Assembly: GCA_004022145.1 (NCBI GenBank)
Contig: RCNU01000035.1
Reading direction: 5' to 3' (one strand)
DNA from: Paecilomyces variotii
Lineage: Eukaryota
Length of the DNA stretch: 39,565 nt
Positions within the stretch are counted from its first letter, which is position 1. Every line of letters starts with the position of its first letter. The notes beneath the pieces were generated by a model. It made no database searches. It was not told where the DNA came from and saw nothing but the letters and a program-made list of their open reading frames with translations. This document shows, piece after piece, positions 2,195 through 25,435 of this stretch. The translations under genes were made by a program, and so were the position numbers.

Positions 2195-2933
2195 ATAATA
2201 CCTCTAGAAGAAACTTAATTAAAAGAATTTTAGCCTATTCTATATTATTAAGGTTATTAGCCTATATATTTATTAGCTTAACTTGCCTGCCTTAATATAT
2301 ATTTATCTTATATTTAATATTAGCTTATTTTACCTTATTATTAAAAACCTTATATTTAAATAGAGATAATCTTTATTACTACTTATTAAAGTTAATAGCC
2401 TTAAAGAATAAGTTATTAAAAATATCTTAGATTCTTAATAAGAATACTATAAATATAGAAGCCTTTAACTATAATATATTATTAAATAGTTAAGCTATAA
2501 TAACTTAATTAAAGAGCCTATATATTATTTATAATATACCTAGGAGATTATTATAAACTTCTATTGCTATTACTTAAATAAGCTAAAGCCTAGAGATAAT
2601 TTTAATAAAGCTTAACCTTAAGAAGGGGAGTATTATTATAGTGTTAATATAGGGGATAAGATAATTAATCTATTAGCTAATACTTATTTAATTTAGAAGA
2701 ATAAGGTCTATACTCTTCTAAATTATATAAGGAATTATATAATCTTATAAAGATATTTTTAATATATAGCTTAATCTAAATTTAAATTTCTTAAGCTATA
2801 TTTTATTTACTAAGCCTGCCTATAATAGCCTATTTTAGTCTAAATTAGCTAGATAGAGATTCTATAGCTAGTCTTAGTATTAACTACCTTATTCTATTTA
2901 TTCTAACCTGCTCCTCGAGCCTATACCTTAATA
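2195..2933 (+). mobile_element. Gypsy/chromovirus element A, 3' end (integrase C-terminus, chromodomain, PPT, 3' LTR); inserted in the 5' LTR of Copia-1
   Basis: 2196-2290 de-RIPs to QRPQKKLDWKNLGPF..IKVISPHAYQLNLP (GPF/GPY motif). ~2475-2520 reads YVVKWSGYDDPTEEP (chromodomain). PPT AAGAAGGGGAG at 2620-2630. Confidence 0.88.
2634..2933 (+). repeat. 3' LTR of element A (300 bp)
   Basis: Follows the PPT, has TATTA...TAATA ends (RIPed TGTTA...TAACA) and aligns with 38273-38527. Confidence 0.88.
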
Positions 2934-3108
2934 AGTTTAGAGAAAATCATTTCTTAAGCTTAATAAAAAATCTATTACCCTAACTAAGAATATAAAAATA
3001 TATTTTATATTTACTATATATGCTAATACTTCTTCTTCTTAAGTATTATTAGCCCTTTAAGCTATTAGATTAGTCTAGGAATTCTATCTAAACTTATTCT
3101 TTTTAACT
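2934..3108 (+). repeat. Copia-1 5' LTR, distal 175 bp only
   Basis: Matches the last ~175 bp of 7865-8137. The missing ~100 bp would lie left of element A, outside the window. Confidence 0.88.
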
Positions 3109-3120
3109 AATTATAAGCCC
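3109..3120 (+). promoter_or_regulatory. Primer-binding site for a half initiator tRNA-Met (Ty5/copia type)
   Basis: AATTATAAGCCC is RIPed GGTTATGAGCCC, complementary to the tRNA-iMet anticodon arm. The second copy reads AGTTATAAGCTT at 35709-35720. Confidence 0.8.
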
Positions 3121-3149
3121 GGGTTTATAATAACTTAGGAGAAATAGCT

Positions 3150-6100
3150 ATATAATAAAAACTATTCTATCTTAAATATTTAAGTTTAAACTAATAATAA
3201 TAAGCTATTCTTATATAAGAGAACCTGTAATAAGACTGCTTTAATACTATATTAAATACTAAACCTAATAAGAGTTAGATTCTATTAAAAGTTAAAAAAT
3301 TAATCTATTATTATTATATTTTTAATAAAAGATAAAAATAGTAAGAGAGATAAACTTATTTTTACCTTCTTAAGGGAGAATTATAAGATATAATTTTTAT
3401 ATATAAAAAAGTAGCTCTTTAATAAGAATTGCTAGAATACTATTAAATTATTTAAAGAAAAAAAGAAAAGCTAAGATAAAAAGATATTTAGAAAGACTAA
3501 TATAATTATATAATATTAAATTATTAAATACCTCTTAAACAGTAATTAAAAGAACTTTATAAATTTATTTAATATAGAGGATCTATAAAAGAGACTATAA
3601 ATAAAATATAAATAATCTCTCTCTACCTAGAAATATTAGCTTATTTAATAATATATATAATTTCAGATAACCTCTAGATAGATAATTTTAAATGCTTAAG
3701 GATAATTAGACTTAATAGAGAAAAAAATTAAAGCATATAATAAAGATATATCTTTTTTAATTAAACTTAAAGCTAGGATTTAATAATTACTCTTAGCCTT
3801 ATTTAAAGAATATATTACTATTAAAATAGCAATTAATATATAAATAAGCCTAAATATAAATAAAATCCTAAGTATTTTAAAAAAGGTAAAAGCTTAACTC
3901 TAGATAAAGCTAATTATTATATTCTTTATTAAAAATAAATAAACTCTAATTAAATATTATATCTGCAAGAAAGATTACTATATTAAAAACTGCTTATTTC
4001 TACCTATTACTTAGAAAAATATAAGAGATAGCTAAAAATAAAAAAAAGAGTTTCTTAAATAAATATTTAACAGTCTTATTATCTAAGATAAAAAAATAAT
4101 AAACTTAATTACTAAACTCTATAAGGAGGTTTAATTTTTAAAGAGTAAAAGATTAAAAAATAAAAAATATAGAGTATATAAAGCGGAAGAAATCTTAGAC
4201 TCTAAGAAGAGTTAATTTTAACTAAAATCTTTAACTTTAGTTATTTTTAATAACTAAGTCTTATATAAGATTGCTTATTTTTTAAAAGATATTACTAGTA
4301 AGAATCTATCTTAATAATATATAGATAATAGTACTAGTTTATATATAATTAATAAAAACTACTACTTTAAAAGACTATTAATTTAGATTTAATAAAGGTA
4401 TATCTATATAGGCAGAGGAATCTTATATTTAAAATATATAAAAATAGCTATTTTAAGAGATAAGAATAAAAAAGAGTTAGACCTAGAAAATATATTATTT
4501 ATATTAAACCTTAGGGTAAATCTCTTATTAACTAAGATATTTTACTAGCAGTTAAATATATATAAGTATTTTAATAAAAGAATAATATTATATTAAATAA
4601 ATTAGATAAGGTTATAATTTAAAGTACTATTAAATATAGAGTCTATATTATTAAAAAGATCTTCTTAGACTAAATATTAAAGTTATAATATATACTTATT
4701 ATACTATTACTTATTAAAGATACCTTTAATATTATAATTATAAACTAAGAGAAAAGACTTCTTTAAAATAAAATTATACTCTTATTTTATTAAAATAAAA
4801 TTAAGAAAGAGTATTAATTATAGTATAGGAAAATTAGCTATTTTAAACTTAAAAAGGTTAGAAACTTATATAACTTAACTATATTAAAAAAACCTATTAA
4901 AGTAGTAATAAACTATTAATATATAATATATGCTATAGCTAATATTAGAAATAAGAGGAGGATTACTAATATATAGAAGGCTAATATTCTTAAACTTATT
5001 TATATAAATATATATAATTAAATACTAGAGTTTAAAAATAGATATATCTATTTCTTAATAGTTATAGATAATTTTTTAAGGAAAATATAAGTATTTCTAA
5101 TAAAAGCTAAATCTAATACTGCCCCTATTTTAAATAAATAAAAAAGGGAGATTAAGATAGTAATAGGTCTCTAAATTCTTAGTATATAATTAAATAATAT
5201 ACTAGAACTTAAAAATCTTTTTAAGACTTAAAGAAAATAATTTAGTATTTATTATAAACTAATAGTTCTATATATATTAATATAGAACAGAGCTATAGAA
5301 TAAGTATATTAAATTATTAAAAAAGGAATAAGAGCTATATTTAAAGATTTAAACCTTCTAGTTAAATTATAGGTAAAGGCAGCTTAAACTAATATATATA
5401 TTAGAAATAGAGTATTAAATAGACTAATAATTAATAGGGTTTAAATATCTCTAAAAAAAGCCTTTACTAGAGTTAAGCTATTAATTAATTACTTAAAAAT
5501 ATAGAGATATTAAATAATATTATATATAAACCCAGAATCTCTACTATAAGGTATATAAAAAAATAAGTTAATAGATTAAGGCAGAATCTATATTTTTATA
5601 AAATATATTAAGAGAATAAATAAATAATAAAAAATTTAGGCTTTAGATATAAAAAAGATTATTAAGACTTATTAAGCTAAGTTTTTTAAAAATAAATTAA
5701 GAAAAAACCTAGATCTTAAAATTTCTTAAAGATTATTACTGAATATAGTATTAATAAAAAATTTAAGGGGTTAATTAATAACTTAACCTATTATTTTAAA
5801 TATATATATATCCTTAAGTAAAAAAAAATAATATTAAAAATCAGGAGAAGAGCTATAAAGAAATTTTAGTTTTTCTTTAAAAAAAAAAAGAAGTTTTTTA
5901 TTAAAAAGAAATTAAGATATTTTATTATAATAAAATTATAGAATAAAAAAAAATACTTAATTATCCTTATTTTAATAATCTAAATAATTATAAGAATTTA
6001 TAAATAAACCCCTTATCTCTACTAAGTAAATAAGTTATATCTTATATAGAGATTCCTTATATAGTAAAATATAAGAGGGAGAAAATTAAGTTACTAGATA

Positions 6101-7855
6101 ATAAATAAGATACTAAAAAATTATATTAAGCAATACTTATATTAAATCTCCTACCTCTAGGTATTAATATAAACTAAGAGAAGCATATAAAATAAATATT
6201 AAATATTATAATAGCAGTATATATAATAAAGGAGTATATTCTAATCTTAAACTTATATTATACTATAATTAATAACCCTACTTAAGATAAACTATAGTAA
6301 AGTGTATTTAAAGCTAAAATAAATATATTTTAAGTAAATAGAACTTTTAAAATAGTTATATTATTATTAAGAGCTAATATTATAATTAGCTATTAAATAT
6401 TAGCTATAAAGTATAACTTAAATAGTTTCCTTTAAAAGCTTAAAATATACCTTATTACCTAAGAATTTATTTAAAAATATAGTATTAATTTTAAATATAC
6501 CTTTACTTCTATTTTATAATATAATATACTATAAATATTCTTAGCTATTATTATAATAGAGAATTATAAATGCTATATTATAAATATTAATAATATCTTT
6601 ATAAAGTTAATATTAAAGAAGAAAATTTATATAATACTTTTATTAAGAATAAATATACTATTAAGAATAATATTAAAAGTTCTTTAATCTCTATATAATC
6701 TAAAATAAGCTATAAGAGATTAGAATTAAACCTATATAAAAATATTCTAAAAAATAGATTTTATATAGACTAATACTAATCTATGCTTATTATAGTATTT
6801 AAAGAAAAAAATCTTACTCCTAATATATATTAATAATATCTTAATTAGTATAAAATAAATAAAGAATATTTATTAATTTAAATAAGAGTTTAAATTAGTA
6901 TATAAGATAAAAGACCTAGGAGAAATAAAGAAAATCCTTAATATTTAAATTATCTAAAATAGGAAGGACTAAATATTAATAATAGATTAATCTTACTATA
7001 CTAAAGAACTCTTATTATAATATAGAATAAGCAAAAAAAAAGTATATCTAGTTAATATCCTATTAAACAGATATAACTCTTTAAAATTATTTAGCCCTTA
7101 AGATAGAAGAATAAACTAGAAAAAGTATTAAAAGATTATTAATAGTCTAATCTATTTAATAATTTTAATAAGACTAGATATTATATTTATAATAGGTAAA
7201 TTAAATTAATATCTATTAAATCTATTTAAAAAGTATTTTAAAATATTAAAGTCTCTTATAAAATATTTATAATTAACTATATATCTTAGTCTTAAGTTTA
7301 ATATAAACTGAGACTAGTAACTTATTAGGTATTTAGACTTAGATTATATAATAAATAAGACTAATTAGATATTAATCTTAGAGAATATTTTTATTTTAGC
7401 TAATAGTCTAGTAAGCTAATTAAATAAAAAGTAAAAATCTATTATAACTTTAACTATAAAGGCTAAATATATAGCTATATATTAAGCTATAAAGTAGTCC
7501 TAATAATTAGCCCTTTTTTTAAAAGATATAGAATATAGATATTATATTAGTCTAAATAAATTTAAGCTAATAATAAGGGAAGAGTAAGCTTTTATTATTA
7601 ATTCTTCAGTTAAGGTTTATAGAGATAACTAAGTATTATTATTACTAATTAGAGATACTTATATCTATAAGAGATTAAAGCATATTAATATTATATACTA
7701 CTATATATATAACCTATACTAAAAGAATAAGATTAATATTAAATTTATTAGAATATAGAATATAATAGTAAATAGTTTTACTAAACTATTATTAAAAATA
7801 AACTTCCTAAGATTCTTAAGTTAATTAAGATTAATTAACCTAGTAAGTCTAGACT
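3150..7855 (+). pseudogene. Copia gag-pol remnant
   Basis: De-RIPed motifs: Zn knuckle CYIC...H....C ~3954-3993; protease WCVDSGASSHMT ~4315-4350; LWHRKIGH ~4817; integrase YFLTVVDDFSRKTWV ~5049-5093; RT LLVYVDDI ~6817-6840; RNase H GYSDSDY ~7328, STMEAEY ~7451, KHIDIAYH ~7678, ADGFTKPL ~7768. Start is approximate. Confidence 0.9.
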
Positions 7856-7864
7856 AAGAAGAAG

Positions 7865-8137
7865 TATTATAAAATAGCAGTTAAAACTAGTAGATTCTAA
7901 TATAATTAAGATTTTACTTTAAAAAAATCTTTAGGAATAATTTTACTATAATAAAATTAAGCGGCTTAAAAAAAACTACTTCCTAAGTTTTATAAAAAAT
8001 CTATTACCCTAACTAAGAATATAAAGATATACTTTATGTCTATTATATATATCAATACTTCTTCTTCTTAAGTATTATTAGCCCTTTAAGCTATTAGATT
8101 AGTCTAGGAATTCTATCTAAACCTATTCTTTTTAACT
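7865..8137 (+). repeat. Copia-1 3' LTR (273 bp)
   Basis: Starts TATT (TGTT) after a purine tract and ends TTTAACT like the 5' copy. Confidence 0.85.
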
Positions 8138-10490
8138 TAAAGCTTTATATTAATTATTAAGCCTTAAATAATATTATTATAAAAAATAGATATTTTTTAT
8201 TTAAGGTAAATAAAATGCTTAACTAATTAGTTAGCTCTAAAATCTTTATTAAGCTTAATCTTAGAAATACTTATTATTAGATTAAAATCTATTATAAAAA
8301 TAAATAAAAAATAGCCTTTTAAACCTATTATAAGTATTTTAAATATTTAATTATATTATTTAGCTTATATAATATTCTTATTACTTTTTAAGCCTATATT
8401 AATTAAGTATTATAGGGGTTATTAAATATCTATTATATTATATATTTAGATAATATCTTAATTTTCTTTAACTCTATTAAGAAGTATAAGAGATATATAG
8501 TATAAGTCTTAAAAAGACTATAAAAATATAAATTATATATAAAGTTATTTAAATATAAATTCTATAAGAAAAAAGTTAAATTCTTTAATTTCTTTATAAA
8601 AAAAAATAAAATAGAGATAAATTTTAGTAAAATAAAAACTATTAAAAATTAGCTAAAGCTTAAATTTTCTTAAGATTTACTAGATTTTTTAGAAGATTTA
8701 TCTATAATTACTCTATAAAAACAGCTCCTTTAATTAGTCTATTAAAAGGAAGTATCTAGGGAAAAAAGACTAAAATATTTACTTAGATTAAAGAGGCTAT
8801 AAAGGTATTTAATAAACTAAAGTTAATATTTTTAACTCTATTAATATTAAGGTATTTTAATTTAAAGAAGCTAATATAACTTATAATTAATACTTTAAGA
8901 TTCGCCCTTACTATTATATTTTTTTAAGAAGATAATAATAAAATAAGTCTAAATATTAATTTAGAAATAGCTTTAAGAATTAAGACTAGGATAAATTATA
9001 ATATTATATTTAAGAACTAGTATTCTATAGTATATTATGCCTAGAAGTTTATTAAAATAGAGGTATATTATAAGGTCTATAATTAAAAACTCTTAGCTAT
9101 TATTAATATTTTTAAATATTAGTAATATTATTTAAAAAATAATAAATACCTTATATAAATATAAAGTAACTATATAAACCTGCGCTATTTTTTTACTATA
9201 AAGATATCAAATAATAAATAAGCTTAATAGGTAAAATTATTAGCAGTATATAACTTTTAAATTAAATATAAGCTAAAATAGTTTAATATTATAAATACTC
9301 TGTTTAAAAGGGTAGATTTTAAACTATTTAAAATTAAATTCTAGATAAGATTACTTCTAATCCTTTAAAAAAAGCTTTAATATAAAGCTTAGGATAAATA
9401 TATATAAAAAGATAATTTAAAGCATAAACCTATTAAAGCGGGCAGTATAAATAGTCTAAAATATTTAATATAAAAAATACTAATTATTAAGGTAATTAAA
9501 GAAGAGTTTATTTAAGATATTATAATTCTTAGCTTACTCTTTATATTAAAACAGCTTTAAATAAGAGATACTTTTATTTTAAAAAAAATTAGAAAATTAA
9601 AAGTATATACTCCTAGAAATAGCTTAAAGATAGTATAGAGAATAGATAATAAAGGACTATTATAAAAGAGTAATACTATATTTATACTAAATATACTTAC
9701 TATAAAGTAAGAGCTTTTTTAAATATATTATAATAACCTTTATATAAGATACTAAAGTATTAAAAAGACTAAAAAGCTGCTTTAAAGAAGATTTAACTAG
9801 CTTAAGATAATATAGAATATATAGGAATATATATTTATATATAATATTTACTAAAAAAATTAAACTTTATAGCATAAGCTATATAGAGAGCTAAAATCTC
9901 TATTAATCCTAGTATAGCTATAATAAAATATCTTAATAGATTTTATAATAAGACTGCTATTATTAGAGAAATAAGAAGTTATCTATAATTTAATATTAAT
10001 AATTATAGATTACTACTTAAAAATAGCGCTTTATATCTCTATTTATAAAATATTAAAGGCAGATAAAATAATTAACCTTATTATAAATTATATTTATAAC
10101 TGCTTTAAACCTTTATAATTAATTATATTAAATAAAGATATACTATTTATTAATAAATACTAGATAAAATTTTACTACTATATTTAAATTACTAGACTTT
10201 TAAATATTATATTTTACTCCTAGACTAATAGCTAGACTAAAAGATAAAATTAAATATTAGAATATTATCTTTAAGTCTACTTAAACTATAAATAAGATAA
10301 TTAAGTATTTTTATTAATTATAGCAGAGTTTATATATAATAACTTAATTTATATTTTTACTAGTATAATTTTCTTTTATATTATTTATAGATTTAACTCT
10401 AAGAATTAAAATAAATATAACTTTAAGAAGTAAATAAATATATTAATAGTTAATAATTAATTAAAAAAACTTATTAAAATATATACTTAA
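8138..10490 (+). pseudogene. Host Gypsy C, piece 1: RT (from LRLCVDY), RNase H, integrase core
   Basis: 8138-8290 de-RIPs to LRLCVDYRGLN..TIKNRYPLP.VDEMLD.L.GSKIFTKLDLRDAYHQIRI; YLDD at 8443-8454. Reverse-complement match to D at ~13356-15722. Confidence 0.93.
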
Positions 10491-10922
10491 TGTAAGAAAT
10501 AGGGGTTCTTAAAGATCGCTAATAAATTACTTCGCCAGCAATTATAATAAGAGGAGTAGCAGCTTCGCGTACCCAGCTCAAAGAAGGATCTATTAGCGAG
10601 ATAAAGGATTAACTATTGCAATAAAGGGTTTAACTAGTATAGAGAAGGGTCTATACTAGAGGGTTCTAGTAGTAAAGAGTCTATATAAGTAAGAAAATAG
10701 TAGAGTATATATTATATTAGAATAGATTGCTAGCTTCTAGTAAAATAATAATTTAAAGCCTATTTATATTCTAAATCTTAAGTACTTCCTAGCTTTATCT
10801 TATATAAATCCTAAAAGCGGGGAGAGCGGGGTTTAATTAATTACCTTAGTATTATATTTAGATTTGGGGCTTTACTATAATTCTGCGAGCTTATACTTTA
10901 ATAAGAAGCTAGGGGTATAACA
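10491..10922 (-). repeat. D 3' LTR (432 bp)
   Basis: TGTAA...TAACA termini are still intact; direct repeat of 17577-18008. Confidence 0.96.
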
Positions 10923-11188
10923 GTATCCTCCCCCTTTTTAAAGGCTTATCCTTGAGCTATTATAAAGTTATTATATTAAATATAAAGTATAGCTTTATAG
11001 AGGTTTATAATATAATAAATAAAGGAGCTTCTTACCGCCTTTATAGCAAAGGGTTAAGAAGTTATATAAGCTAGGAGTGTTATTTATATAATATTATAAG
11101 GTTAAAATTTTAACCCTTAGTAATTATCTTCCTATCTCTTACTATATATAGCTCCTAGTCCTAAATATATTTAAATAAAGATCTAGAT

Positions 11189-12589
11189 ATGTTTTTAAGG
11201 TTATAATAATACTAATAGTATAGCAGTTTATTAAACTTAAGAAATTAGTTATTTTTTTATTAGTTTTTAGAGCTTCCTACTTTAGGGGTAAGTTATCTTA
11301 ATTAACTATATTAATATAAGCTAATTTAATTTAGATAATGTCGCCCTAAATTTATTTTATATTTAAGCAATATAAAAAGACTCCTTAAGTAAGTGTTCTA
11401 GTATAAGATTTTATATATTATATACTGATTTCTATAGTATTAATAGCCTAAGGATATTATCTCCCCCTCTAGGGAGTTATTTCCTTCTCCTACTTTTAAG
11501 ATAGAGGATATAGCTATTATTATTATAATACAGCTAAATCTAGTTGCTATTATAATATTAGAAAATAATCCCCTAACTACTGCTAAGATATTAGGGATTT
11601 TAGCCGTTATTATAATGCTAGAGAGACTACTTCCTTAGATAAGTATTACCCCTTTTATGGCTATTAATAGGTTAATATCTTTATTTACCCTAGGTTCTGT
11701 AGAGGATCTATTAGCTAAGATAAATATTATGCTAGAATTAAGGCGTAGGAGATTTATACTTTTATTAGATTAGCCTTTTTTTATAATCTTAGCTATTATA
11801 TAGGCGGGTTTATCTAATTTAATAATAGCGCTAAAAAGCCTATTAAAGAGAAAGAGGACTTATTTTATTATTAGGCTAGCTGCTATAGCTAAGCTAAGGA
11901 TAACTCTTATTTATACTATAAAAAGGCCCTAGAGATAAAGCGCAAGGCGTGAGGAGGTTATTAATATAAGGATTTAAACTAAACTAGCTGTTATTAAGAT
12001 ATTAATTAAAACTACTATTATTGCTATTACTAATATAATAATAGAGAATAGCCCTATTATCTCTTAGCTAGGTAAGAAGTTTTCTCTAGTGCCTTAAAAG
12101 ATATGCCTTTATTATTTAAAGGGGCTAATTAAGAATTTAGCACTTTAATATATTTATGCTAATATTAATATTAAGTGCAATTATTGCAGTTGTAAGTATA
12201 AGCCCTATATTTTAGTCTTATTAGTTTATAAGGATAAGCTTACTTATCTATAGAGCCTTAGCTAAGAGGCCTATCTCTTAGGTAATTATAGGTCTTTTAA
12301 GAAGGCTTATAATAAGTATAAATTCTTTATAAAGGTATATTTATATAAAGCGCCTATTAAGATAAATATAGATAAGCTTATATCTACTGTTCTATTAACT
12401 CTATTTTTATATAAGTAGTTTATAATATAGCTTTAGCAGGAGTTGCTTAAATTATTTTATTTAATAGTATTAAATCTGTAATATATGTAAGAAATTATAT
12501 ATATTACTTATAATATTCCTCCTTTCTCTAATAAGAAGGAGAATAAATCTGTATTAATAGGGTTCTATAATAGTAAAGTAAATAAGTAG
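11189..12589 (+). pseudogene. Antisense accessory ORF of D with Zn2Cys6-like cluster (RIP-inactivated)
   Basis: One frame de-RIPs coherently: MAPKSPSKRKR at 11825, C-x2-C-x11-C-x8-C-x2-C-x6-C at 12104-12208 (three codons still TGC, three TAT from TGT), and an acidic tail ending in TAG at 12587-12589. In-frame ATGs survive at 11189, 11615, 11657 and 11729; the true start is uncertain. Confidence 0.68.
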
Positions 12590-12789
12590 GGGGGATTAAT
12601 TTTAGGCCTGTATTTTTAGTTTCTGCTAGAGATAGCCTAGTTAAAATAAATTTATTTCTAGATAGATTAGCTTTTTATATCTTTATTAAAACTCTTAAAC
12701 CTTTATAAATAGATAAATAGAAAAAGAGTAATATAAATTTAATAATAAAATAGTTAAATAAAACCTATAAATTTAATAAAAAAAAAGGG

Positions 12790-15700
12790 AAATTTTATTA
12801 GTTCTGTTAACTTCTTTTTTTAAAGCTTCTTAGAGCCTTTCTTAGAGAGGTTTTATTAATAGCTTATATTATTATCTTAAATTTAGTTAATATATCTTAA
12901 GCGTACTTAAGATTCTCCTTAGGTTATTATAAATTTTTATAATCTAGATAGCTCTTTTATTTAATTAAATATTACTTCTTTCCTTATATTATCTATTTAT
13001 CTAGAATAGCTTTAATCTCTTATTCTAGTTTATTATTTACTAAGATTAGGTTTAAATACTTAGGTTTAACCCCTAATCTTTAATAGTAGGGCTCTAATAG
13101 GGAGATATAAAAGACTAGGTATATTTTGCTCAGGCTTTTTAAGAGCTTAAGCTAATAGGCTTAAATTCTAATTCTCTCTATAACTTTATAAGGTCTTAAG
13201 TATTTTATATCTAGTTTTTTAATTAGTTAATCTGTCTTTAAGTTTTTTATTAAAAGGCAGACTCGGTCTCCTATTATATAGGATCTAGGCTTATATTTTT
13301 TATTATAATATTTCTATTATATAGTAATAGCCTTTTAAAGGGATTTTTTTAATTAGGTATATATTTTAGTAAGTTCTTTTAATTAATTATTAACTATTAG
13401 TATATTTATTTGCTTTCTAGAGTTATATTTATCTTAACTCTTAGGATTAAATTTATAGATAATGCGAAAGGGAGTTGTACTTATAGAGGTATAAATTAAA
13501 TTATTATATATAAATTCTGCTATAGTTAATAAGGATACCTAATTATTTTACTTATAGTTTAAGTAGACCTAGAGATAATATTTTAATATCTAGTTCTGCC
13601 TTTTAATCTAGCTATTAGTCTAGGGGTAAAATATAGTACTTAAAAGTCTAGTAATTTAAATATAGCAGTAAAGTTCTATCTAGTATTTATTAGTAAATAA
13701 TATCCCTTTATCTAATATAATTAACTATAGAGGTTTAAAGCAGTTATAGATATAATCTATAATAAGGTTAGCTATCTTATCTATCTTTAATATTTTATAG
13801 ATAGGGATATAGAGCGCTATTTTTAAGTAGCGGTCTATAATTACTAATATTAAATTATAAATAATTTCTTATTTCTCTAATAGCAGCAGTCCTATTATAA
13901 AATCTATTAAAATACTCTACTATAACTACGCTAGGATTAGTAAAGACTTTAGCTTTTTATATAGCTTATATTATAGAGTTTAGTTTTTCTGGCAGATATT
14001 ATATATAGATATATATTTTTATATATCCTGTATTATTTTAGGCTAGTTAAATCTTCTTTAAAGCAGCTCTTTAATCTTCTTAACGCCTTAATGCCCTATA
14101 TAAAGGTTATTATAATATATTTAAAGGAGCTCTTACTTTATAGCGGGTATATCTAATATAAATATAGTATTACTCTTCTATAATAATCTTTTATTATTTA
14201 TTCTCTATACTATCTCTAAGCTATCTTTAGGAATATATGCTTTTAATTCTTTAATTTTCTCTAAAATAAAGGTATTCTTTGCTTAAAGCTATTTTAATAT
14301 AAAGAGTAGGCTAAGAGTTATAGCATCTTAAATAGACTCTTCCCTAATTACTTTAATAACTAGTATTTTTTATATTAAATATTCTAGACTATTTATACCG
14401 CCCACTTTAATAAGTTTATACTCTAAACTACTTTCTTATATATACTTATCCTAAGCTTTATACTAAAGCTTTTTTTAGAGGGTTAGAAGTAATCCTATCT
14501 AGGATTTAGATTTAAATAGTTTAAAATCTGCCCTTTTAAATAGGGTATTTATAGTATTAAGCTATTCTAGCTTATATTTAATTTAAAAGTTATATACTGC
14601 TAATAGTTCTACTTATTAAGCTTACCTATTATTTAATATTTTTATAGTAAAGAAATAATATAAGTTTGTGTAATTGCTTTATATTTATATAGAATATCTA
14701 TTACCTTCTAGGTAATAATATTAATGTTTAAAAGTATTAATAATAGCTAGGAGTTCTTAGTTATAGACCTTGTAATATGCCTTTATTTTAGTAAACTTCT
14801 GGGTATAATATACTATAGGGTGCTAGTTCTTAAATATAGTTTATTAATCTATCTAAGTTTTAATTCTTAGACCTATCTCTAATCTAGCGCCTAAAGCTAT
14901 TTTATTACTATCTCCCTAAAGGAGTATAGTAGTAAGAGTAAATCCTAAGATATTAATCGTAAGTATTATTAGCTTTTTTAGATTAAAATGCCTTAGTACT
15001 AGCGGAGTTATAAAAGCTAATTTTAGCTTATTAAATACTTTCGCGGTTTCTTTAATCTAGATAAATATTTTAGTTTTCTTCCCCCGGATACTTTTTTTTA
15101 ATAAACTAGTTAAAGGAGCTGTTTTTATAGAGTAGTTATAGATAAATCTTCTAAAAAATCTAGTAAATCTTAAGAAGACCTGAATTTTTTTAAAGGATTT
15201 AGGCTTTAGCTAATTTTTAATAGTTTCTATTCTGCTAAGATCTATCTTTATTTTATCTTTCTCTATAAGGAAATTAAGGAATTTAACCCTTTTTTTATAG
15301 AATTTATATTTAGATAATTTCGCATATAATTTATATTCTTACAGTCTCTCTAAGACCTGCACTATATATCTTTTATACTCTTTAATAGAGTTAAAAAAGA
15401 TTAAGATATTATCTAAATATATAATATAATAGATATCTAATAATCCCTGTAATATTTAATTAATATAGGCTTAAAAAGTAGCGGGAGTATTATATAGGCT
15501 AAATAATATAATTAAGTACTTAAAATACTTATAATAAGTTTAGAAGGCTATCTTTTATTTATCTCCGCAGCAGATTCTAATCTAATAATAAATATCCCTA
15601 AGATTAAGCTTAATAAAGATCTTAGAGCTAACTAATTGGTTAAGTATTTTATTTATCCTAGGTAAAAGATATCTATTCTTTATAGTAATGCTGTTTAAGG

Positions 15701-16480
15701 CTTAATAATTAATATAAAGCCTTAATATATTATCTACCTTAGGAATAAATAGAATAGGTACTCTTGTAAGGCTTATTAATAGTTATATTTACTCTTTTTA
15801 TTATATATCTTTAAGATATTTATATAAAATATTAAGTTCTTTAGTAAAGAGGTTATAAAGTCTCTCTTATAAAGGCGCTGTACTATCTAAGAGTTTAATC
15901 TTATATTTATTTATTTTAGCGGGTAATATATTTATTCTTTTTTTTAAAAAGACCTCTATATACTTTTTATATTTTAAAGGTAAGTTTTTTAGAATAATAG
16001 GGTTAATTTGATCTCTGTAGAGTATCTAAATTATCTCTTCTCTTATTATCTTAGAGAATTATTAAGTATTTTTAATCTTTATTTATAATTATTATAGAAT
16101 ATAATATCTTTAAGTTATTAACTCTTAATCTATAATAAGATTAATAGCTTATAATTATAATTTCTTAAGAATAATAAATAATCTAGGTATTAAGATAATA
16201 TAAAAGTATATATCTGCCTTTTCTATAGTTTCTTCGGAGTTAATAATATAGATCTCCGCTTTAAAGAATCTATATTTCTAAATCTTATACTTGTTAATAG
16301 ATTTAAAGTTTATATACTATTAGAGATTTAGGGGAATTCTATATTATATAGCTATATTTAAGCTAATATAGCACTAAGCTAAACCTAAATTAATAAAAGC
16401 CTTATCTTTAAATATATTATTAGGTAGGTAAAGTTATATTAAAGTATATAAAGACTTTTTACTTATTTTAGATCTTTTAT
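12790..16480 (-). pseudogene. D pol remnant (PR, RT, RNase H, integrase, chromodomain)
   Basis: AFVDSG ~16385-16400; YLDD 15408-15419; TDASGF ~14945-14960; HDQELLAIVDAFKHWRHYLEG ~14703-14765; integrase HH..H ~14090-14118; chromodomain ~12870-13030. Ends are approximate. Confidence 0.92.
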
Positions 16481-17550
16481 TATAAAGGGCTATAATAGTC
16501 TTAAGTTTTTCTCTTTTAAGAGAATCTTTCTTTTTTAGATATAATTTAGATCTTTATATATAATCTCTTTTATTATAATTAAAGCAGCGGCCTTCTTTTT
16601 TAAGCTAGTCCTATTTTATTAATAATCTGAATTTCTTCTTTTAGGGTTTATTTATCTTCTCACGCTAGTTATTAGTCTCCTTTCTCTTTTACCCTGAGAT
16701 AGAGTCTTTTAGCGCGCTTTATATTAATCTACTTATGTTTAGTATAATAAAGAGGTTTAAGGATTTATTTTTCTTTTAATTTATTTCCTAATTAGTAGCT
16801 AAAAATATTAATTAGTTAAGGTTAATTAGGAGATCTTAATAGTTTAATAAACCTGTTTAAACTTTAAGTTATAATTTTGTATAAAAAATATAAGACTAAA
16901 TAATCTTATTATTATTAAATCCTTTATCTTAGTTTAGCTTCGCGCGAGCTTGTTTAAAATAATATAGAAAAGCTCTAGCAGTTTAATTTAAATATTAGGT
17001 TAAGGTATAAAAGTAATTTATTATATTTTATCCCTAATAATGCGGATTATTAAGTAAGTTTAATAATTAACCTTTAAACCTATTTTAGGTTAGTATCTAG
17101 AAGTTAGAATCCTTTTACTAGTAAATCTAAGATTAAGCAAGTTCTTTATCTAGTAAGGCTGCAGTGTAGGTAACTTTCTTATTTTCTATCTTAAATAATA
17201 AAGCATTATAGGCTAAATATTTATTTATATACTAGTATTACTAGTAATAGGTATTAAGTATAATAGCTCTATACCTCTGCAGTTCAGATAATTTAAGCCT
17301 TAATTACTTATTAATATAAGTAGCAGCAAGAAGCTATAGGAGGTTTCTCTTTATTAATAGATTATTTTCTATTTAGGATTAATCTCTCTCTAGGCCTATT
17401 AGAATATCTCTTAAGGTTTATAAGCTAATTTTAGTAATTAGTTACTGTAAGCTAAGTTTAATAATCTCTAAACCCTTTAGAGTATATATTATAGGCTAAG
17501 AGCTAGGACTCTTATTCTCTAAGTTATAGAATATATTAATATAGCTACTT
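16481..17550 (-). pseudogene. D gag remnant
   Basis: Lies between the 5' LTR and protease; EGRCFNCNKRGH zinc knuckle at ~16535-16595. Confidence 0.8.
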
Positions 17551-17576
17551 ATATCGCTAAATAAAGTAATCTAAAT

Positions 17577-18008
17577 TATAAGGAATAGGGGTTCCTAAAG
17601 ATTATTAATAAATTACTCTACTAGTAATTATAATGAGAAAAGTAATAGTTTTATATATTTAACTTAGAAAAGAGTCTACCAGCAAGATAAAAGATTAATT
17701 ATTATAATAAAGGGTTTAACTAATATAGAGAAGGGTCTATACTAAAAGATTCTAATAATAAAGAGTCTATATAAGTAAGAAAATAATAGGGTATATATTA
17801 TATTAGAATAGATTGCTAGCTTTTAGTAAGATAATAATCTAGAGCCTATTTATATTCTAAATCTTAAATATTTCCCAGCTTTATCTTATATAAATCCTAA
17901 AAGCAGGGAGAGCGGGGTTTAACTAATTACCTCGGTATTATATTTAGATTTGGGGCTTCGCTGCAGTCCTGCGAGCTTATGCCCTAGCGGGGAGCTAGGG
18001 GCATAATA
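17577..18008 (-). repeat. D 5' LTR (432 bp)
   Basis: Colinear direct repeat of 10491-10922; minus-strand TATAAATA at 17847-17854. Confidence 0.96.
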
Positions 18009-18830
18009 CTTAATTAAAAGAATTTTTTTAAAAGATTATTACTGCATAATAAAAATATTATAATAAGAAATATAAGCCTAGATCTTATATAATAGAAGAC
18101 TAAGTTTACCTTTTAATAAAGAACTTAAAAATTAATTAATTAATTAAAAAACTAGATATAAAATACTTAAGACCTTATAAAGTTATAGAGAGAATTAAAA
18201 CTTAAGCTTATTAATTTAAGCTCTTAAAAAGCCTAAGTAAAATATATTTAATTTTTTATATCTCTTTATTAGAGCTTTATTATTAAAGACTAAAGGCTAA
18301 ACTTAAATATTTAAACTTAATCTTAGTAAATAATAAACTAAAATAAGAGATTAAAGCTATTTTAAATAAATAAATAATATAAGAAAAGAAATAATATTTA
18401 ATTAAATAGAAAAGCTATCTAGATTATAAAAATTTATAATAGCTTAAAAAAGACCTTAAGTATATTTAAAATATATTAGCTAAATTTAAGGTAATAATAT
18501 AAACTATTAATAAGATCTCTTTAAAAAAGGCTCTAAGAAGCTTTAGAAAAAGAAGTTAATAAAATTAATAAGATTTTCCTTTTTTTTCTTATTAGATTTT
18601 TAAATTTTATTTAATTATTTAATTATTAAATTTATATTACTCTTTCTCTATTTATTTATTTATAAAGGTTTAGGAGTTTTAATAAGGATATAAGAAGCTA
18701 ATTTATCTAGAAATAAATTTATTTTAATTAGGCTATCTCTAGTAAGAACTAAAAATATAGGCTTAAGATTAATCTCTCTTATTTATTTACTTTATTATTA
18801 TAGAACCTTATTAGTATAAATTTATCTTCT
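18009..18830 (+). pseudogene. Host C, piece 2: integrase C-terminus, chromodomain and start of 3' region
   Basis: Resumes exactly where piece 1 stops; KKLDAKYLGPYKV ~18146-18185; reverse-complement match to D ~12538-13360. Confidence 0.92.
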
Positions 18831-19441
18831 TATTATTACTCTAGGATCTTTCTTAGCTATTTTATTATACTATTATTAGAGAAAGCTTAAGTAAAACTTA
18901 CTTAATTTTTCCTTAATAATCTAAATCTATTTAGATCTTTTATAAGTAGTTAATATAGTTTACTTACTATAATCTATTAAGTAAGGCTTTATAAAGGTAT
19001 AATTTAATAGGTCTAATAGAATAATTAAATAATAATAGTTAAGTTAGAAGTAGGGCCTAGTTAAATTATAATCCTTCTAGTATTATTCTTACTAACCTAT
19101 AATAAATAGTAGATAAATAAAATATATTAAGTGCGAAGAACTAAATATATCTATAAAGCGTAAATAAGTATTCTTATATATTTAGTTCTTTCTATTATAC
19201 TATATACTATTCTACTATATATTTTATAATATATTTAATCTCTAATATTTTCTTATATACTATTCTCCTACTATTTTAATAGTATATTTAATAGTATATA
19301 TTATATGCTTTTCTATATTATTAACTATTCTAGTGCTATTCCTTTAAATTATATAATTAGTATCTTTATTATATAATTATGCTGCAGTTTTATATTATTC
19401 TTTTAGTTTCTTTATTTACTATATCTAGTTAGTCTATAATA
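18831..19441 (-). repeat. E 3' LTR (611 bp)
   Basis: Direct repeat of 24828-25435, adjacent to the PPT. Confidence 0.93.
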
Positions 19442-19565
19442 TTATTCTCTCTTTTTAAGGTCTTTATCTCTAAAGATATAGATATAAATAAAGCGCTCGC
19501 CTATATTACTATTAAGATTTTAGCTTTTCTTTTATAAGTAATATTTTTATAATATATTTATTATT

Positions 19566-20144
19566 ATACCTCTTAAGCGTTTTAATTACTTTACTAATTA
19601 TATTTATTAGTTTAATTATATTTACCTTAATAGTTACTTTATTAAATATTCTTATAAATATTATTTCTCTTATAGTAAAGCTTATATTATAGATTTAAAA
19701 AGTTAAAACTATACTTTTTATACTTATTATAGTTATAAATATAAAAAACAATTTTATAGTAAAAGAGAGTAAAATAAGCTTTAAGAAGCTTAAAAAAAAA
19801 TAAATATTAAACTTACTGCTGCTAAGAAATAATCTACTCTTCTTTTTATTAAAATTCTTCGCCTATAAAAATAGTAAAAGTTCTTAAAAGAGTATAATTC
19901 TAAAATATTAGATTATAATATTTTAGTAATAAATAAATTAAATAAAGAAAATTCTCTTTCTGCTAAAGATTTAGTTAAGCTTAATTACTTTATAATTAAA
20001 GATAATTATTAATATTAACAGCTATCTGCTACTCTTAATAATCTATTAATAAGTTAAATTCTTTATAATTTAAGCCCTAGTTTTTAGACTTTTACTAGTC
20101 TTAATATTCCTCTATTAAATATTAGTAATTTATTAAATTTTTAA
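19566..20144 (+). pseudogene. Antisense accessory ORF of E (~192 codons) with canonical Zn2Cys6 spacing and coiled-coil-like region
   Basis: De-RIPs to MPP..R...PCEYCFSRGKACIMDSKSQNCASCTRRGRKCEKQFHSEREWNKLQEAQ...ELAAAEEQ...KILRLRKQQKFLKER...LDELDEEDPLS. C-x2-C-x6-C-x8-C-x2-C-x6-C at 19653-19742; all six codons are now TAT (RIP of TGT). Confidence 0.7.
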
Positions 20145-23100
20145 CAGGTTCTTAAGTATTTTCTAAAGTATTATATTCTTTTTATTTTATAAGGTACTAA
20201 GTTTATTTATTAACTTTTCTTTCTTCTAAAATTCTTTTAATTTTATATTTTTCTTCTATAATCTTAACTTCTTTATATTATATTTAAGTATTTTGCAGTA
20301 CTAGTTTTAATAATAAGATATAAAAAATTAAGTATATTCTTATATTATCTAGGAGTTTTAATCTATAGTTTACTAGTCCGATTTTCTCTTTAATAATAAA
20401 TAGTCTAATCTTTTTATTATCTAGTTTACTACTTAATTATTTTATTTTAATATTTTTATATAGTAAGTATACTTTTTTCTCTCTTTTTAAGTTAAGTCTC
20501 TTTTAATATATTTTGTCGAAGTAGACTGCTATTCTAAGGTTTATAAATTTAATATCTTTTTATAGTTATTTATATAATATCTATAGCTATATAACTTTCT
20601 TTTCTGCTTTATAGTTTATTTTTTATATTTTCTTTAGTTTATTGCTAAATTTAAGATTATATCTAAAATTAATATAAAATAATATCTTCTTTATTATTAT
20701 ATTAATTAAGTTATTATATATAAATTATACTATAAGTAGTAATTTAACTTAATTACTTTAATTATAATTTATATAATTCTATAAGTATTACTTAATTATT
20801 TAATTTATTCTTTTTATTTATCTATTTATCTATAGGTAATAAGCTATGCTAAGTCTATACTTAATACTAATTATATCTATTAATGTTTTCTATAATTTTA
20901 ATATAAACTATAAATCTTTATTTATTATTATTCTCTTTAGTATACTATATTTACTAAATATATATTAAAGTAGTAAGTATACTATATTAATTACTATTAC
21001 GTCTTAACTCTTAGTAATTATTATTACTACTAGTTATACTATTTAATAGTTATATATAATTATTCTATTTTTTTTCTCTTTAATAGCGTTAGTTTAAGTT
21101 CTTAGATTTTTTTTTTATAATTTAGTCTTTTACTAAGTATATCTACTCGCTTATTTTATTCTCTATTATAATATTTAATTATAAAGTTATAATTAGCTAA
21201 TACTTTTACTTATTTTACTTATCTTTATATTAATACTTTAATTATTATAAAATAAGTAAAATTCTTATAATCTATAATTATTTTAATTATATATTTTATT
21301 CTTTTAAGATAAACTCTCTATTATTAAAACGCTATTATTATAGCTAGTAATTCCTTATTATAAATCTTATAATTTAATTCTATTAGTATTATTTTTCTTA
21401 AATAATATATTATTAAATATAGCTTTTTATTATTATTTAGCTATAATATAATTACTTTAATTATATAGTCTAATATATTAGTCTTAATAATTATTTCCTT
21501 TTCTAAATTATATTATCTAAGTATTAGTACTATAATAAGTCTTATTTTAACTTCCTTAAATATTTTCTATTAGGTTTTAATCTATTAGTAATTTTTCTTT
21601 TTCTTTAATAAGTTAAATAGTAATCTTATAATATCTATATATTGTTTAATATATTATTAGTAATAGTTTACTATTTTAATAAATACTTATAATTCTTATA
21701 GGTTTATTAGTATTAGCTAATCTTTAATTATCTAAATCTTTTATTTATCTGTTTATATCCCTTCTTAAATAATTTAATATCTTAGGAAATTTATTTCCTT
21801 AATATAAAATTTATATTTTTTTAGCTTTATTCTTAGCTTTACTATTTATAATTATTATAATATTATCTTAATATATTTAATATATTCTTTATAATTTTTA
21901 GAAAATATTAAAATATTATTTAGGTATATAACTATAAAGTTATATATATAATCTCTTAATACTTTATTAATAAATTATTAAAATATTACTAGTGCATTAG
22001 TTAATTTAAAAGGTATAATCTTATATTTATAATATTTAAACTTAGTTTTAAATGCTATTTTCTATTCTTTACCTTTCTTTATTTATAATCTATTATAGAT
22101 ATCTGCAATATTAAATTTTATAAAAATCTTTACTTCTTATACTATATCTTAAATCTCTATAATTAGTAGTAATAGGTATTTATTCTTAATTATAATAGCG
22201 TTAAGCTATTAGTAATCTGTATATAGTTATAAACTTCTATCTTTCTTTAATATAAATAGTATTAAATATTCTGCTAGTAATATTAATAGTTATATATAAC
22301 TTTTTTATAGGTTCTCTTTAATATATATTTTTAGTACTTTTAATTTTTTCTTTAATAATTAGTAAATTAGTTTATATATTAGTAACTTCCCTTTAATTAA
22401 GGATATTTTATAATTATATAGTCTATAGTTTAGTAATTCCTTATTAATGCTAAGATTAAAGAGATTTTAAAATTATTTATATTTTTTTAATATCTTTAAT
22501 TCTATTATCTTTTTTAACTTCTTTATTCTTATTATAGTACTATATAGTATCTAACTATATTACTTCTCCTAGATTTATATATTCTATTATATAATCTTAC
22601 TTATTAACTCGCTTTCTAAAAGTTCTTTAAGATTTTCTTATTCTTTTAACTTAGAGCTATTAATTATTTCCCTTAACTTAATCCCTTTTATAGCTAACTT
22701 TACCTCGCCTATTTAACTCTTAAGAGCCTAGAAATAGTCTTATTTTAGCCTTATTCTATATATATATCTTATAAATTATATCTTATTATATGTTTAATTA
22801 ATCTTTAAATTATATTATCTAAGCTATAATACTCTAAGTACTATATTATACTCTTTAATCTTAGTTATATTAAAGTTAAGTAATTTTAAATAGTTTTAAA
22901 CTAATATTAGAATTATTTCTATCTTTATAGTTAAAGATTATCTTAAGTCTTCTCTATTAAATCTTAAAATTAATACTAGCTATTTCTTTATTTTTTTTTA
23001 GAATTTATAACTTCTTTATAAATCTTAGGTTTATAAAGTTTCTTATAGCTCTTAAGTTAACTAGTACTTTAATTAATTAGCCTATAATCTTAGCCTATAA

Positions 23101-24800
23101 TTTAATATATTAACCTTTAGCTATTACTACTATTTAGTATTATCTTTCTTATTATTATCTTTTAATTCGGTTTTCTCTTAGAAAATACCTATTATTAATC
23201 TTCGCGCTATAATATATTAAATAATAGTCTTTATAATATACTGTCTAATATATACTCTTATACTCTAGGTATCTCTAATACTTTCTCTATATATATCTTA
23301 GCCTATTATAATAGGCTAATATTTCTCTTTATAAGGAATTTACTTAAGTCTTAGCTTATTAAGCCTCTTACTTATAGCTATACTTATTTAAGTTTAATAA
23401 AATAAAATCTATTACTCGCGTCTTAGCCTTAATTACTTTAATACTTAGTTTTTTATTAGTTTTAAGCGATTATTTACTATTTATATCTTTTAGCTTCTTA
23501 AGTATTTCTTTAGCCTTATATTATTCTTTTAATTTAATTAAGTCCTTTTATAGAATTATTATAACTACTTTATTAATTTTATTATTTAATAATATTATTT
23601 ATTGCTTTATAAGTTATTTTACTACTTTAAATATTTCCTAGGTTTCTTATAAATATTTATTAATTTTATCCTATACTTCTTATACTATTTCTAGTAATAC
23701 TAATACTTATTTAGCCTATTTAATCCTTAAAAGATCTATATTTTTATCTCTATTATCTTAAGTTATTTATTTATATTATATTTATTCTTAGCTCTTTAAA
23801 ACTTTATTATAATTACTTTCTTTATTTATTGCTTTTAATTATTATCTTAGTTTTTTTAATACTTTATAATTCTTTATATAATAGCTTTCTTTATTACAGT
23901 TAAAATATTTAAACTTCTTTTATTTTTAATTCTAATTAATTCTATTATTTCGTCTTAGTACTATAGCGTTTAGCTTTATTAGCCTTAATCTATAGGGATT
24001 CTTATCTCTAATTAGTTATTTCTTATTTAATCTATATTAATTTAATTTACGATATTCTATAGATCTTTATTATTTCGCATATTTTTTAGCTTATTTTCGT
24101 TCGAATATCTTATTATTAATTTTAATTAATAATTTAATAAGGTTATTAATATTATCTAGTCTATTAACTTATATAAGTTTATCTTAAACTTCTTTCTTAA
24201 GTCCTTATTTATAAACTGCTATTTATACTAATAATCTTTATCTTAGATAAGATATAATTTATTTAAACTATATCGCGTAATCTGCTGCTAATTATATTTA
24301 ATATAAATATTTAAGCTTTTGCTTTATAACCTTTATCTTATCTCTAATATTAAATGCTTTATTTAGCTTTGCTTAAAAGCTTATATAGCTTCTATAAATT
24401 TATTTAGTAATTTTATCTTTATTAGGATTTAAATTCTTATTAACTACTATTAAGTTAATCTAATTAAATACTAGTCCTCTTATATAGAATATTACTAAAA
24501 GTATTTTATTATTATTATTAGTAATATTTATTATTTAAAAGTATAGATTTAATTAAATAATAAATATTTATAACTTATCTCTTTTACTATAATAATTTTT
24601 AAGTTTTAGTAATTTAATTCCTTATTATAGTTTATCTTCTGCAGCTTATATAGTTATAATAATCTCTTATAATTATTTAATTATTCTTATAAATTCTTAA
24701 GTTATAGAAGTGCGATTTATATTATTAGTTATTATAGCCTACTTAGCAGATATTACTTAATTATTACTAAATATCTTAAATCTTTAAATACTTAAACCTT
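20090..24800 (-). pseudogene. E gag-pol remnant
   Basis: DPYGPRPMELD ~23970-24000; CCHC knuckle ~23865-23910; extra H..W..C..D.C..H motif ~23205-23265; VLVDSGA ~23048-23068; LFVPKKDGSLRLCTDYRQLN ~22200-22260; YLDD 21915-21926; RIHPIFHVSLLEP ~20300-20340; chromodomain QYLVKWKGY...ENTWEP ~20146-20200. Confidence 0.92.
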
Positions 24801-24827
24801 TAGTAATAGAGTTAAAAGTACTTAATA

Positions 24828-25435
24828 TATTATTACTTTAAGATTTTTCCTAGCTATTTTATTATATTATTAAAAAAGGCTTAAATAAAACTTATTTAAT
24901 TTTTCCTTAATAATTTAAGTCTATCTAGATTTTCTATAAGTAGTTAATATAGCTTATTTATTATAATCTATTAAGTAAGGCTTTATAAAGGTATAACTTA
25001 ATAAGTTTAATAAGATAATTAAATAATAATAGTTAAGTTAGAAATAAAGCTTAATTAAATTATAATTCTTCTAATACTATTCTTATTAACTTATAATAAA
25101 TAATAAATAAATAAAATATATTAAGTATAAAGAACTAAATATATCTATAGAGCGTAAATAAGTATTTTTATATATTTAATTCTTTCTATTATACTATATA
25201 CTATTTTACTATATATCTTATAGTATATTTAATCTCTAGTATTTTCTTATATATTATTCTTCTATTATTTTAATAGTATACTTAATAATATATATTATAT
25301 GCTTTTTTATATTATTAACTATTTTAATACTATTTCTCTAAATTATATAATTAGTATCTTTACTATATAATTATACTGCAGTTTTATATTACTCTTTTAG
25401 TTTCCTTATTTACTATATTTAGTTAGTCTATAATA
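24828..25435 (-). repeat. E 5' LTR (608 bp)
   Basis: Direct repeat of 18831-19441. Confidence 0.93.

Follow-up and report, generated by a model that had tools for sequence, protein, structure and literature searches.

A 39,565-nucleotide stretch of DNA from the mold Paecilomyces variotii (contig RCNU01000035.1 of assembly GCA_004022145.1; hereafter the window) is a nest of long terminal repeat (LTR) retrotransposons, heavily altered by repeat-induced point mutation (RIP) and with a GC content of 12-27% per kb. Among them is element D, a Ty3/Gypsy chromovirus that RIP has degraded and whose pol is encoded by the minus strand. In the spacer that separates pol from the 3′ LTR of D, positions 11338-12589 of the plus strand very probably represent a RIP-inactivated copy of a genuine two-exon accessory gene that is antisense and convergent to pol. 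The copy in D is dead, and the protein that the intact gene encoded may have functioned like a transcription factor. An antisense frame with a six-cysteine motif had been noted at this place in an original prediction made from the letters of the DNA. That observation is confirmed, and the interpretation then given to it, a recurrent zinc-cluster accessory module of fungal chromoviruses, is supported in part.

The antisense gene of element D and its relatives

Relatives of the encoded protein were sought by an exhaustive phmmer search of 1.84e9 representatives (E ≤ 0.001), using as query the translation of 11447-12589 with stop codons read through as X. Five were recovered: P0001 (248 amino acids, E 4e-27, aligned to query residues 1-178), P0002 (E 5e-23), P0003 (E 3e-13), P0004 (207 amino acids, E 6e-12, query residues 180-288) and P0005 (243 amino acids, E 5e-5, query residues 207-374). 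P0002 and P0003 themselves look RIP-mutated, and P0005 does not. All homologs that carry a source name are annotated as hypothetical proteins, as is the cluster member P0006, and come from P. variotii or Paecilomyces lecythidis; P0001 belongs to the former species and P0005 to the latter. P0001 is present as an identical sequence on five contigs, with accessions that cover four or more P. variotii strains, while P0005 is single-copy and lies on a 734-kb contig.

When these homologs were compared with the window by tblastn, matches were found in D and in the pieces of its host element C (see below), and nothing in element E, element F or the other window elements matched them. The C/D family had been described as unlike E, and the absence of any detectable tblastn similarity to anything in E agrees with this. 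A profile search recovered P0001 and P0005 only, from candidates dominated by RIP-type words of D, and is uninformative on range. Related-locus scans of metagenome and viral contigs yielded no confirmed relative.

Allowing for RIP, P0006 matches D without exception. All 17 residues of exon 1 (11338-11388, plus strand; an ATG and 16 further codons) are identical to the N-terminus of P0006, MPPRICFVSKRRKKTPQ, or reachable from it by C>T and G>A changes alone (nine identical, eight RIP-consistent). The same holds for 118 of 118 aligned residues in exon 2 (71 identical, 47 RIP-consistent; 22% for a rotated null), so that 135 of 135 residues in total are identical or consistent with D. Consistency falls to 75% for P0001, 56% for P0004 and 53% for P0005, with nulls of 19-20%. 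Exon 2 (11447-12589, plus strand) contains 380 codons and a TAG stop at 12587, as delimited by the phmmer matches, the alignments and RIP-consistency, and the ancestral protein would have been about 397 amino acids long.

The two exons are separated by 58 nucleotides (11389-11446, plus strand) bearing the signals GTAAGT...CTGAT...TAG. This segment is missing from both P0001 and P0006, which are continuous across the junction; in P0006, MPPRICFVSKRRKKTPQ is followed by PEDITSPS..., and the TAG that closes the segment is followed directly by the codon that specifies the Pro of PEDI. The ATG at 11338 is in a different frame from exon 2, and the length of the segment (58 = 3 × 19 + 1) accounts for this frame change of +1. 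From its signals and the homolog alignment, we read the segment as a putative spliceosomal intron. Lying antisense to the genomic RNA of D, such an intron would persist through retrotransposition. Antisense transcription might start in the region of about 400 bp upstream of the gene (10941-11337, plus strand), which on its position is presumed to hold a promoter or 5′ untranslated region, or else within the 3′ LTR.

The accessory gene in D carries 19 stops in 398 codons, every one TAA or TAG; the six-frame mean stop frequency is 11.7%. Between 11450 and 12350, the plus frame whose codons begin at positions p with p mod 3 = 2 has 1-7 stops per 100 codons, compared with 7-22 in the remaining plus frames. 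An unmutated homolog has Gln or Arg at 11 of the 16 internal stops of exon 2, and at a twelfth, copy C has Arg. A sense-strand open reading frame (ORF) in the spacer was also considered. One minus frame is stop-poor over 11400-12090, and stop density alone is thus unable to choose the strand, but homologs, ATG, intron and stop all lie on the plus strand and the sense-strand candidate was rejected. The start is likewise not the one proposed in the original prediction, which began the protein at 11825 with MAPKSPSKRKR and called this segment similar to a nuclear localization signal (NLS). The basic cluster stands, being present in P0001 as KGLSKRKR. The methionine does not, since its counterpart in P0001 is an internal Ala (...TAAPKGLSKRKR...), and ATG 11338 takes its place.

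Three points limit the two-exon gene model. A consensus of D and C, expected earlier to give an open frame, is not open: when the less-mutated state of the two copies is taken, 18 of the 19 stops persist, since 17 of them are shared with C. In addition, the joint 11388/11447 is absent among the best 15 of 16 joints in the sequencing-run contigs. Finally, we infer that the Paecilomyces homologs lie inside intact elements and carry the intron there. The first point loses its force because the external homologs supersede the open-consensus test. Transversions between D and C fall 4/3/6 on codon positions 1/2/3, and this total of 13 leaves a codon-position test powerless.

The six-cysteine module and its possible function

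A motif C-x2-C-x11-C-x8-C-x2-C-x6-C had been predicted at 12104-12208 of the plus strand, with three Cys codons intact in D and three replaced by TAT. It is indeed present: TGC stands at 12104, 12176 and 12185 (a TGT at 12191 was not counted at the time), and P0005 has the same spacing as that predicted from the TGC and TAT codons of D. The six Cys columns read CCCCCC in P0005, YYCCCY in P0004, CYYCCY in D and YYYYYY in C. All non-Cys residues in these columns are Tyr, which is the TGY>TAY signature of RIP. Moreover, the three TAT codons of D fall in Cys columns of P0005, which upholds the view that they were ancestrally Cys. The TGC at 12185 is TAT in most contigs of other family copies from public sequencing runs (positions 12186 and 12187).

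The spacing is also distinctive within the window. With either Cys or Tyr allowed at each position, the exact-spacing pattern has two occurrences in the six frames, one in D and one in the host C copy, and about 0.1 are expected by chance from arithmetic on the residue frequencies in those frames. A relaxed zinc-cluster [C/Y] pattern, by comparison, occurs 23 times and is alone worthless as evidence. Its abundance and the 19 stops in the frame might be taken to mean that no gene exists, and that a chance open-looking frame in AT-rich DNA has been joined to predictor artefacts in related genomes. We give this view almost no credence. It is effectively refuted by the E value of 4e-27 for P0001, by the Cys columns and by the complete RIP-consistency of P0006 (null 22%), and it also fails to explain why the exact-spacing pattern occurs in D and its copy only and why start, intron junction and stop all align.

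Two homologs that cover the module, P0004 and P0005, share 46% identity, with conserved blocks, in-frame indels and an aligned C-terminus and stop. This comparison bears on a further alternative, in which antisense transcription itself matters, through control by double-stranded RNA or small RNAs or through transcriptional interference, and the ORF is incidental. Such a possibility has been raised for antisense additional ORFs (aORFs) of plant retrotransposons generally (PMC7264820). For the present gene it appears highly improbable, given the conservation of P0004 and P0005 at the protein level, the four of six Cys that are kept or show Tyr-only changes between them, and a correctly placed intron that maintains the reading frame.

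The earlier assignment of the module to the Zn2Cys6 class is harder to sustain. Members of that class have the consensus spacing C-x2-C-x6-C-x5-12-C-x2-C-x6-8-C. Four of the five spacings fit, but the first loop is x11 where x6 is near-invariant, and several other results weigh against a zinc cluster in the same way. Pfam hmmscan at E ≤ 10 detected neither Zn_clus nor any other family in P0001, P0002, P0004 and P0005, and likewise nothing in the isolated 55-residue Cys segment of P0005. A phmmer search of PDB sequences returned no zinc-cluster protein, the one match being a chance similarity to a small terminase (E 0.6). AlphaFold2 (AF2) modeled the Cys module of P0005 as a β-hairpin, with a predicted local distance difference test (pLDDT) score of about 46-58, and Foldseek (pdb) and VIA-align wide searches with the P0005 model gave generic helical hairpins only (Z ≤ 7.9), both lists being taken up by matches to the helical part. 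P0001 lacks the Cys module and has a long C-terminal helix in its place, so not every family member carries the module. The Pfam scan of the window translations also contained no Zn_clus.

A structure search of the ESM-Atlas with P0005 residues 84-150 gave a different picture. Three unnamed clusters came out on top, with template modeling (TM) scores, by query, of 0.60-0.71, and 7 of the 10 rows were clusters bearing Zn_clus, with TM scores of 0.50-0.55 over 40-46 residues. However, TM scores over 0.5 carry little meaning for such short stretches, and the aligned part was the Zn_clus domain itself in two of those seven rows. By ESM-Atlas features, the nearest clusters are unnamed Ascomycota proteins (0.91 for the whole of P0005, 0.90 for residues 84-150). 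A prediction of P0005 residues 84-225 as a homodimer with zinc scored 0.02 and weighs neither way. Membership in the Zn2Cys6 class, drawing on ESM-Atlas models matched at TM of about 0.5 and on nothing in Pfam, is therefore not upheld, while "Zn2Cys6-like" may be kept as a reasonable lead that the ESM-Atlas models slightly favor.

From N- to C-terminus, the protein consists of a basic N-terminus, a disordered Pro/Ser-rich region, basic clusters, the Cys module, about 90 residues of helices and an acidic tail. Exon 2 opens with a disordered segment rich in Pro, Ser and Ala, in which the block SITPFxAINRS...VEDLLAE...ELRRxRF is conserved. Two basic clusters follow at 11825-11950 (plus strand), KSLLKRKR and KRPxRxSARR in D and KGLSKRKR ... 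KRPRRRSAGR in P0001, which look like a bipartite NLS and might act as one. Downstream of the module lie a helical region (12209-12514, plus strand; equivalent to P0005 residues 132-184) and a C-terminal tail (12515-12586, plus strand). Both a helix after the Cys motif and an acidic C-terminus had been read from D, and both are found in the unmutated homologs. The tails of P0005 (GLPPFSDDEGD..GEVEE) and P0004 (GLPPFSDEEEED...GKVAE) share an acidic PPFSD(D/E)E element that has been mutated to N/K in D.

In the AF2 model of P0005, confidence is low before residue 97, the helices at 132-150 and 154-184 reach a pLDDT of 84-88, and a third helix spans 196-219. P0001 is disordered apart from its long C-terminal helix (pLDDT above 92). 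In this variant, a single long helix at residues 182-247 replaces the six Cys, and the N-terminal half is retained along with the basic clusters; a deletion could have produced it, or it could be a copy that became fixed or domesticated. Residues 1-17 of P0005 (MPPIRRRGRGRPRK) contain a GRP core that we take to resemble an AT-hook, which would presumably suit binding of AT-rich DNA such as RIP-mutated repeats.

The accessory protein was probably nuclear. As a mechanism, we suggest that an antisense promoter within or next to the 3′ LTR would drive its expression, and that it would be imported into the nucleus via its basic clusters and bind zinc through the six Cys, in either a divergent Zn2Cys6-like cluster or two CxxC knuckles. 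It might then regulate transcription of the element or of the host as a DNA-binding regulator. Taken jointly, an own promoter, nuclear entry, zinc binding and DNA-binding regulation form a tentative proposal to which we would grant somewhat less than an even chance.

Alternatively, the gene could be real and its product no transcription factor. The Cys module would then be of zinc ribbon or treble-clef type and bind protein or RNA, serving retrotransposition (for example in nuclear import of the pre-integration complex, or in target choice together with the chromodomain) or blunting host defence. The missing Pfam match and the departure of the x11 loop from the consensus suit this idea, as does the AF2 hairpin at the first Cys pairs, which resembles a ribbon more than it does the two helices of the Zn2Cys6 fold. 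Most of the N-terminal half, moreover, is predicted to be disordered and carries short conserved motifs of the kind that typically mediate interactions, and nuclear import and regulatory roles have been discussed for plant aORFs (PMC7264820). However, the ESM-Atlas neighbors of the Cys segment mostly bear Zn_clus, basic clusters with an acidic tail make an activator-like layout, and nothing positive speaks for any specific alternative role. On balance we hold a function of this kind to be rather unlikely, if still a serious competitor to DNA-binding regulation.

The broadest form of the proposal, that fungal chromoviruses carry a wider, hitherto unrecognized family of antisense, spliced genes for small DNA-binding regulators with a divergent, x11-loop Zn2Cys6-like module, we judge to be unlikely. 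If it were true, the Ascomycota clusters nearest P0005 (52-157 members each) would be members in other fungi, the proteins could regulate transcription from the LTRs or protect the element against genome defence, by analogy with HBZ (see below), and the fungal-specific Zn-cluster fold would have a mobile-element branch.

Element D, its host element C and their neighbors

Element borders were obtained by self-comparison of the window, with LTR ends read from the sequence. Element D (10491-18008; 7,518 bp) has its 5′ LTR at 17577-18008 and its 3′ LTR, in element orientation, at 10491-10921, both on the minus strand. The pair can be aligned over 10493-10920 and 17579-18006 with 84% identity, and is flanked by a 5-bp target-site duplication, CTTAA, at 10486-10490 and 18009-18013. 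A polypurine tract (minus-strand AAAAAGGGGGAGGA, about 10922-10940), read from the sequence, abuts the 3′ LTR. Gag-pol (12876-17576, minus strand) is convergent with the accessory gene. The first in-frame stop past the chromodomain lies at about 12866, and 180-275 bp separate the end of pol from the end of the accessory gene. The original prediction gave about 1.9 kb between chromodomain and polypurine tract; with the chromodomain ending at about 12876 and the tract at 10922-10940, this is correct.

A Pfam scan of pol, translated from 17576 on the minus strand with stops read as X, detected RVT_1 (5.8e-14), RT_RNaseH (9e-10), Integrase_H2C2 (3e-7) and SH3_Tf2-1 (3e-11), ordered as in Ty3/Gypsy elements. 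The degraded chromodomain at 13019-12876 has an E value of 0.04 and 14.3 bits, under the Pfam cut-off. Among the matches listed for D pol, PF00385 is present in 19 of 22 homologs, and none of these 22 chromovirus-type matches is from Paecilomyces. D therefore has the chromovirus order of reverse transcriptase, RNase H and integrase with a C-terminal chromodomain, Chromo itself scoring below the cut-off.

D sits within host C, an element of the same family in the opposite orientation. C is a truncated copy, equivalent to 10888-15725 of D, and is interrupted by three nested LTR elements (D, E and F) that leave it in four pieces (8137-10490, 18009-18838, 25444-26076 and 34535-35559). The insertion junctions have short duplicated bases consistent with target-site duplications. 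Over 2,473 columns, D and C differ by 385 transitions and 43 transversions, a RIP signature.

As predicted, the same antisense frame is present in C, on the minus strand at 34547-34999 and 25446-26075. Exon 1, the intron and the N-terminal half of exon 2 occupy 34547-35110 (exon 1 and intron coordinates are approximate), and the C-terminal half including the Cys module occupies 25446-26075, with all six Cys positions now TAT or TAC. Both E and F inserted within the accessory gene of C, at the equivalents of D positions 12529-12534 and 11908-11914, respectively. The F insertion (26076-34534) splits the two halves and the E insertion (18839-25443) truncates the 3′ end. The gene has an identical position in C and D, and the intron is retained in both.

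Many further copies exist. DNA run X1 contributed 543 contig pieces on 10900-12900 at 80% likeness or more, and their differing places comprise 545 transitions and 13 transversions. At position 11341, other copies show a T>C change that restores the Pro of P0006. High copy number and the same position in C and D imply that the gene travelled with the element. The 10900-12900 stretch is also contained in runs X4, X9 and X11-X14, which are food, grain and fermentation metagenomes from different studies, and in small share in the metatranscriptome runs X19 and X20; the carrier organism seems to be common in such samples. For X19 and X20, library DNA is a possible source, and the contigs carry neither strand nor level.

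These data speak to the possibility that the gene is a passenger, either a captured host gene fragment or a host gene that recombined with the family, and that the Paecilomyces homologs are the host originals. The identical sequence of P0001 on five contigs, its accessions from several strains and the single-copy state of P0005 could fit a host gene, and an intron is typical of a cellular gene. The 135 of 135 match between P0006 and D, however, indicates the same element family rather than a diverged host paralog. P0002 and P0003 have the RIP-mutated appearance expected for repeats, and the gene stands at the same site in C and D in a stretch that is highly multi-copy. Lone unmutated copies, for their part, are expected under active RIP, and P. 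variotii retains one intact element, Tn123 (PMC6300479). We thus consider a passenger quite improbable and continue to regard the gene as an authentic accessory component of the C/D family.

Element E (18839-25443) likewise encodes pol on the minus strand, with RNase H, SH3_Tf2-1 and Chromo (E 1e-4) domains, and its LTRs, about 612 bp long, are 90% identical. Its LTR edge (19450) is some 650 bp away from the end of its chromodomain (about 20097). This spacer offers much less room for an extra gene than that of D, and at about 17% GC it is not reliably readable. A relaxed-pattern match in E at 19653 has zero Cys. Element F (26076-34534) has LTRs of 149 bp. A further repeat family lies on both sides of host C (2723-8137 and 35588-38527), as direct repeats about 32.57 kb apart with 71-90% identity, and has LTR-like repeats at 2928-3108, 7957-8137 and 35588-35680.

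Significance and comparison with known systems

LTR retrotransposons with antisense accessory genes have been described before, but the function of these genes is obscure and they have been little studied. In the fungal literature we found essentially one named case, brtn, and the C/D locus adds a second fungal family. The system is tractable, since natural unmutated homologs exist in Paecilomyces molds, the antisense intron would provide a clean transcript signature, and the six-Cys, basic and acidic layout makes nuclear, zinc-dependent regulation directly testable. P. variotii is reported to be transformable and crossable (PMC6300479). The locus also demonstrates that reading through RIP damage can recover true protein features, because the spacing derived from TAT codons equals that of an intact relative.

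P. variotii is described as having active RIP and AT-rich regions built of mutated retrotransposons (PMC6300479). One intact "Tf2-type" element, Tn123, is reported from strain CBS 144490, where it occupies 231,587-238,677 of contig 123 (PMC6300479). Compared by description only, Tn123 resembles D in occurring in the genus of the homologs, in size (7,091 and 7,518 bp) and in having RIP-degraded copies with CpA>TpA bias. The accessible portions of PMC6300479 mention no extra antisense gene in Tn123, and our literature search found no further publication mentioning this element.

The module had been put forward as under-described, but published precedents exist in the aORF-3R of plants and the brtn gene of Boty, as described in PMC7264820 and PMC8365987. 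In plants, Grande, RIRE2, Retand and PvRetro13 carry antisense ORFs in the interval from pol to the 3′ LTR, and some encode nuclear proteins (PMC7264820). The GENE23 protein of maize Grande is nuclear and its gene has its own promoter (PMC7264820, citing Gomez-Orte 2013). GENE23 thereby offers a parallel to the mechanism suggested above for the D protein. The D gene is like the plant aORF-3R in position, in orientation and in conservation across copies (PMC7264820). Its place is within the element, with pol on one side and the polypurine tract and 3′ LTR on the other, and host C has the same layout; its coding strand (plus) is opposite to that of gag-pol (minus); and protein-level conservation extends over C, D, P. 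variotii and P. lecythidis. The plant genes differ in belonging to different elements and in their reported domains, which are SMC-like and transposase_28 (PMC7264820), and no sequence relation between the D protein and plant aORF-3R was found.

The fungal case, brtn, belongs to Boty elements of Botrytis and Sclerotinia (PMC8365987, PMC7264820, PMC4227169; citing a 2011 Virology paper) and is reported to be absent from the current B05.10 annotation (PMC8365987). Boty is, like D, a fungal chromodomain Ty3/Gypsy element with an antisense extra gene between pol and the 3′ LTR, but its hosts are Helotiales rather than Eurotiales, and the comparison made here is one of layout. The named homologs of the D protein include no Botrytis or Sclerotinia protein, which is weak evidence on kinship with brtn. 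The literature search also revealed no publication in which a Zn-cluster-like protein is connected with an antisense gene of a retrotransposon.

Zn2Cys6 transcription factors of the Gal4 type (PF00172) resemble the D protein in having six Cys with four of five spacings in common (x2, x8, x2 and x6), basic residues after the second Cys, helices after the module and an acidic region. Factors of this type bind two zinc ions by their six Cys and recognize CGG-type DNA sites. The D protein departs from them in its x11 loop, the mid-protein location of its module, its small size, the lack of a Fungal_trans region and its encoding by a transposable element. A functional analogy, with no homology, may be drawn to HBZ of human T-cell leukemia virus type 1 (HTLV-1), an animal retrovirus. 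HBZ is an antisense-encoded, spliced, nuclear regulator of the bZIP class that is expressed from the 3′ LTR. Like the proposed D protein, it is encoded by a spliced transcript from the interval that separates the last sense gene from the 3′ LTR, is basic and has a layout resembling that of a transcription factor.

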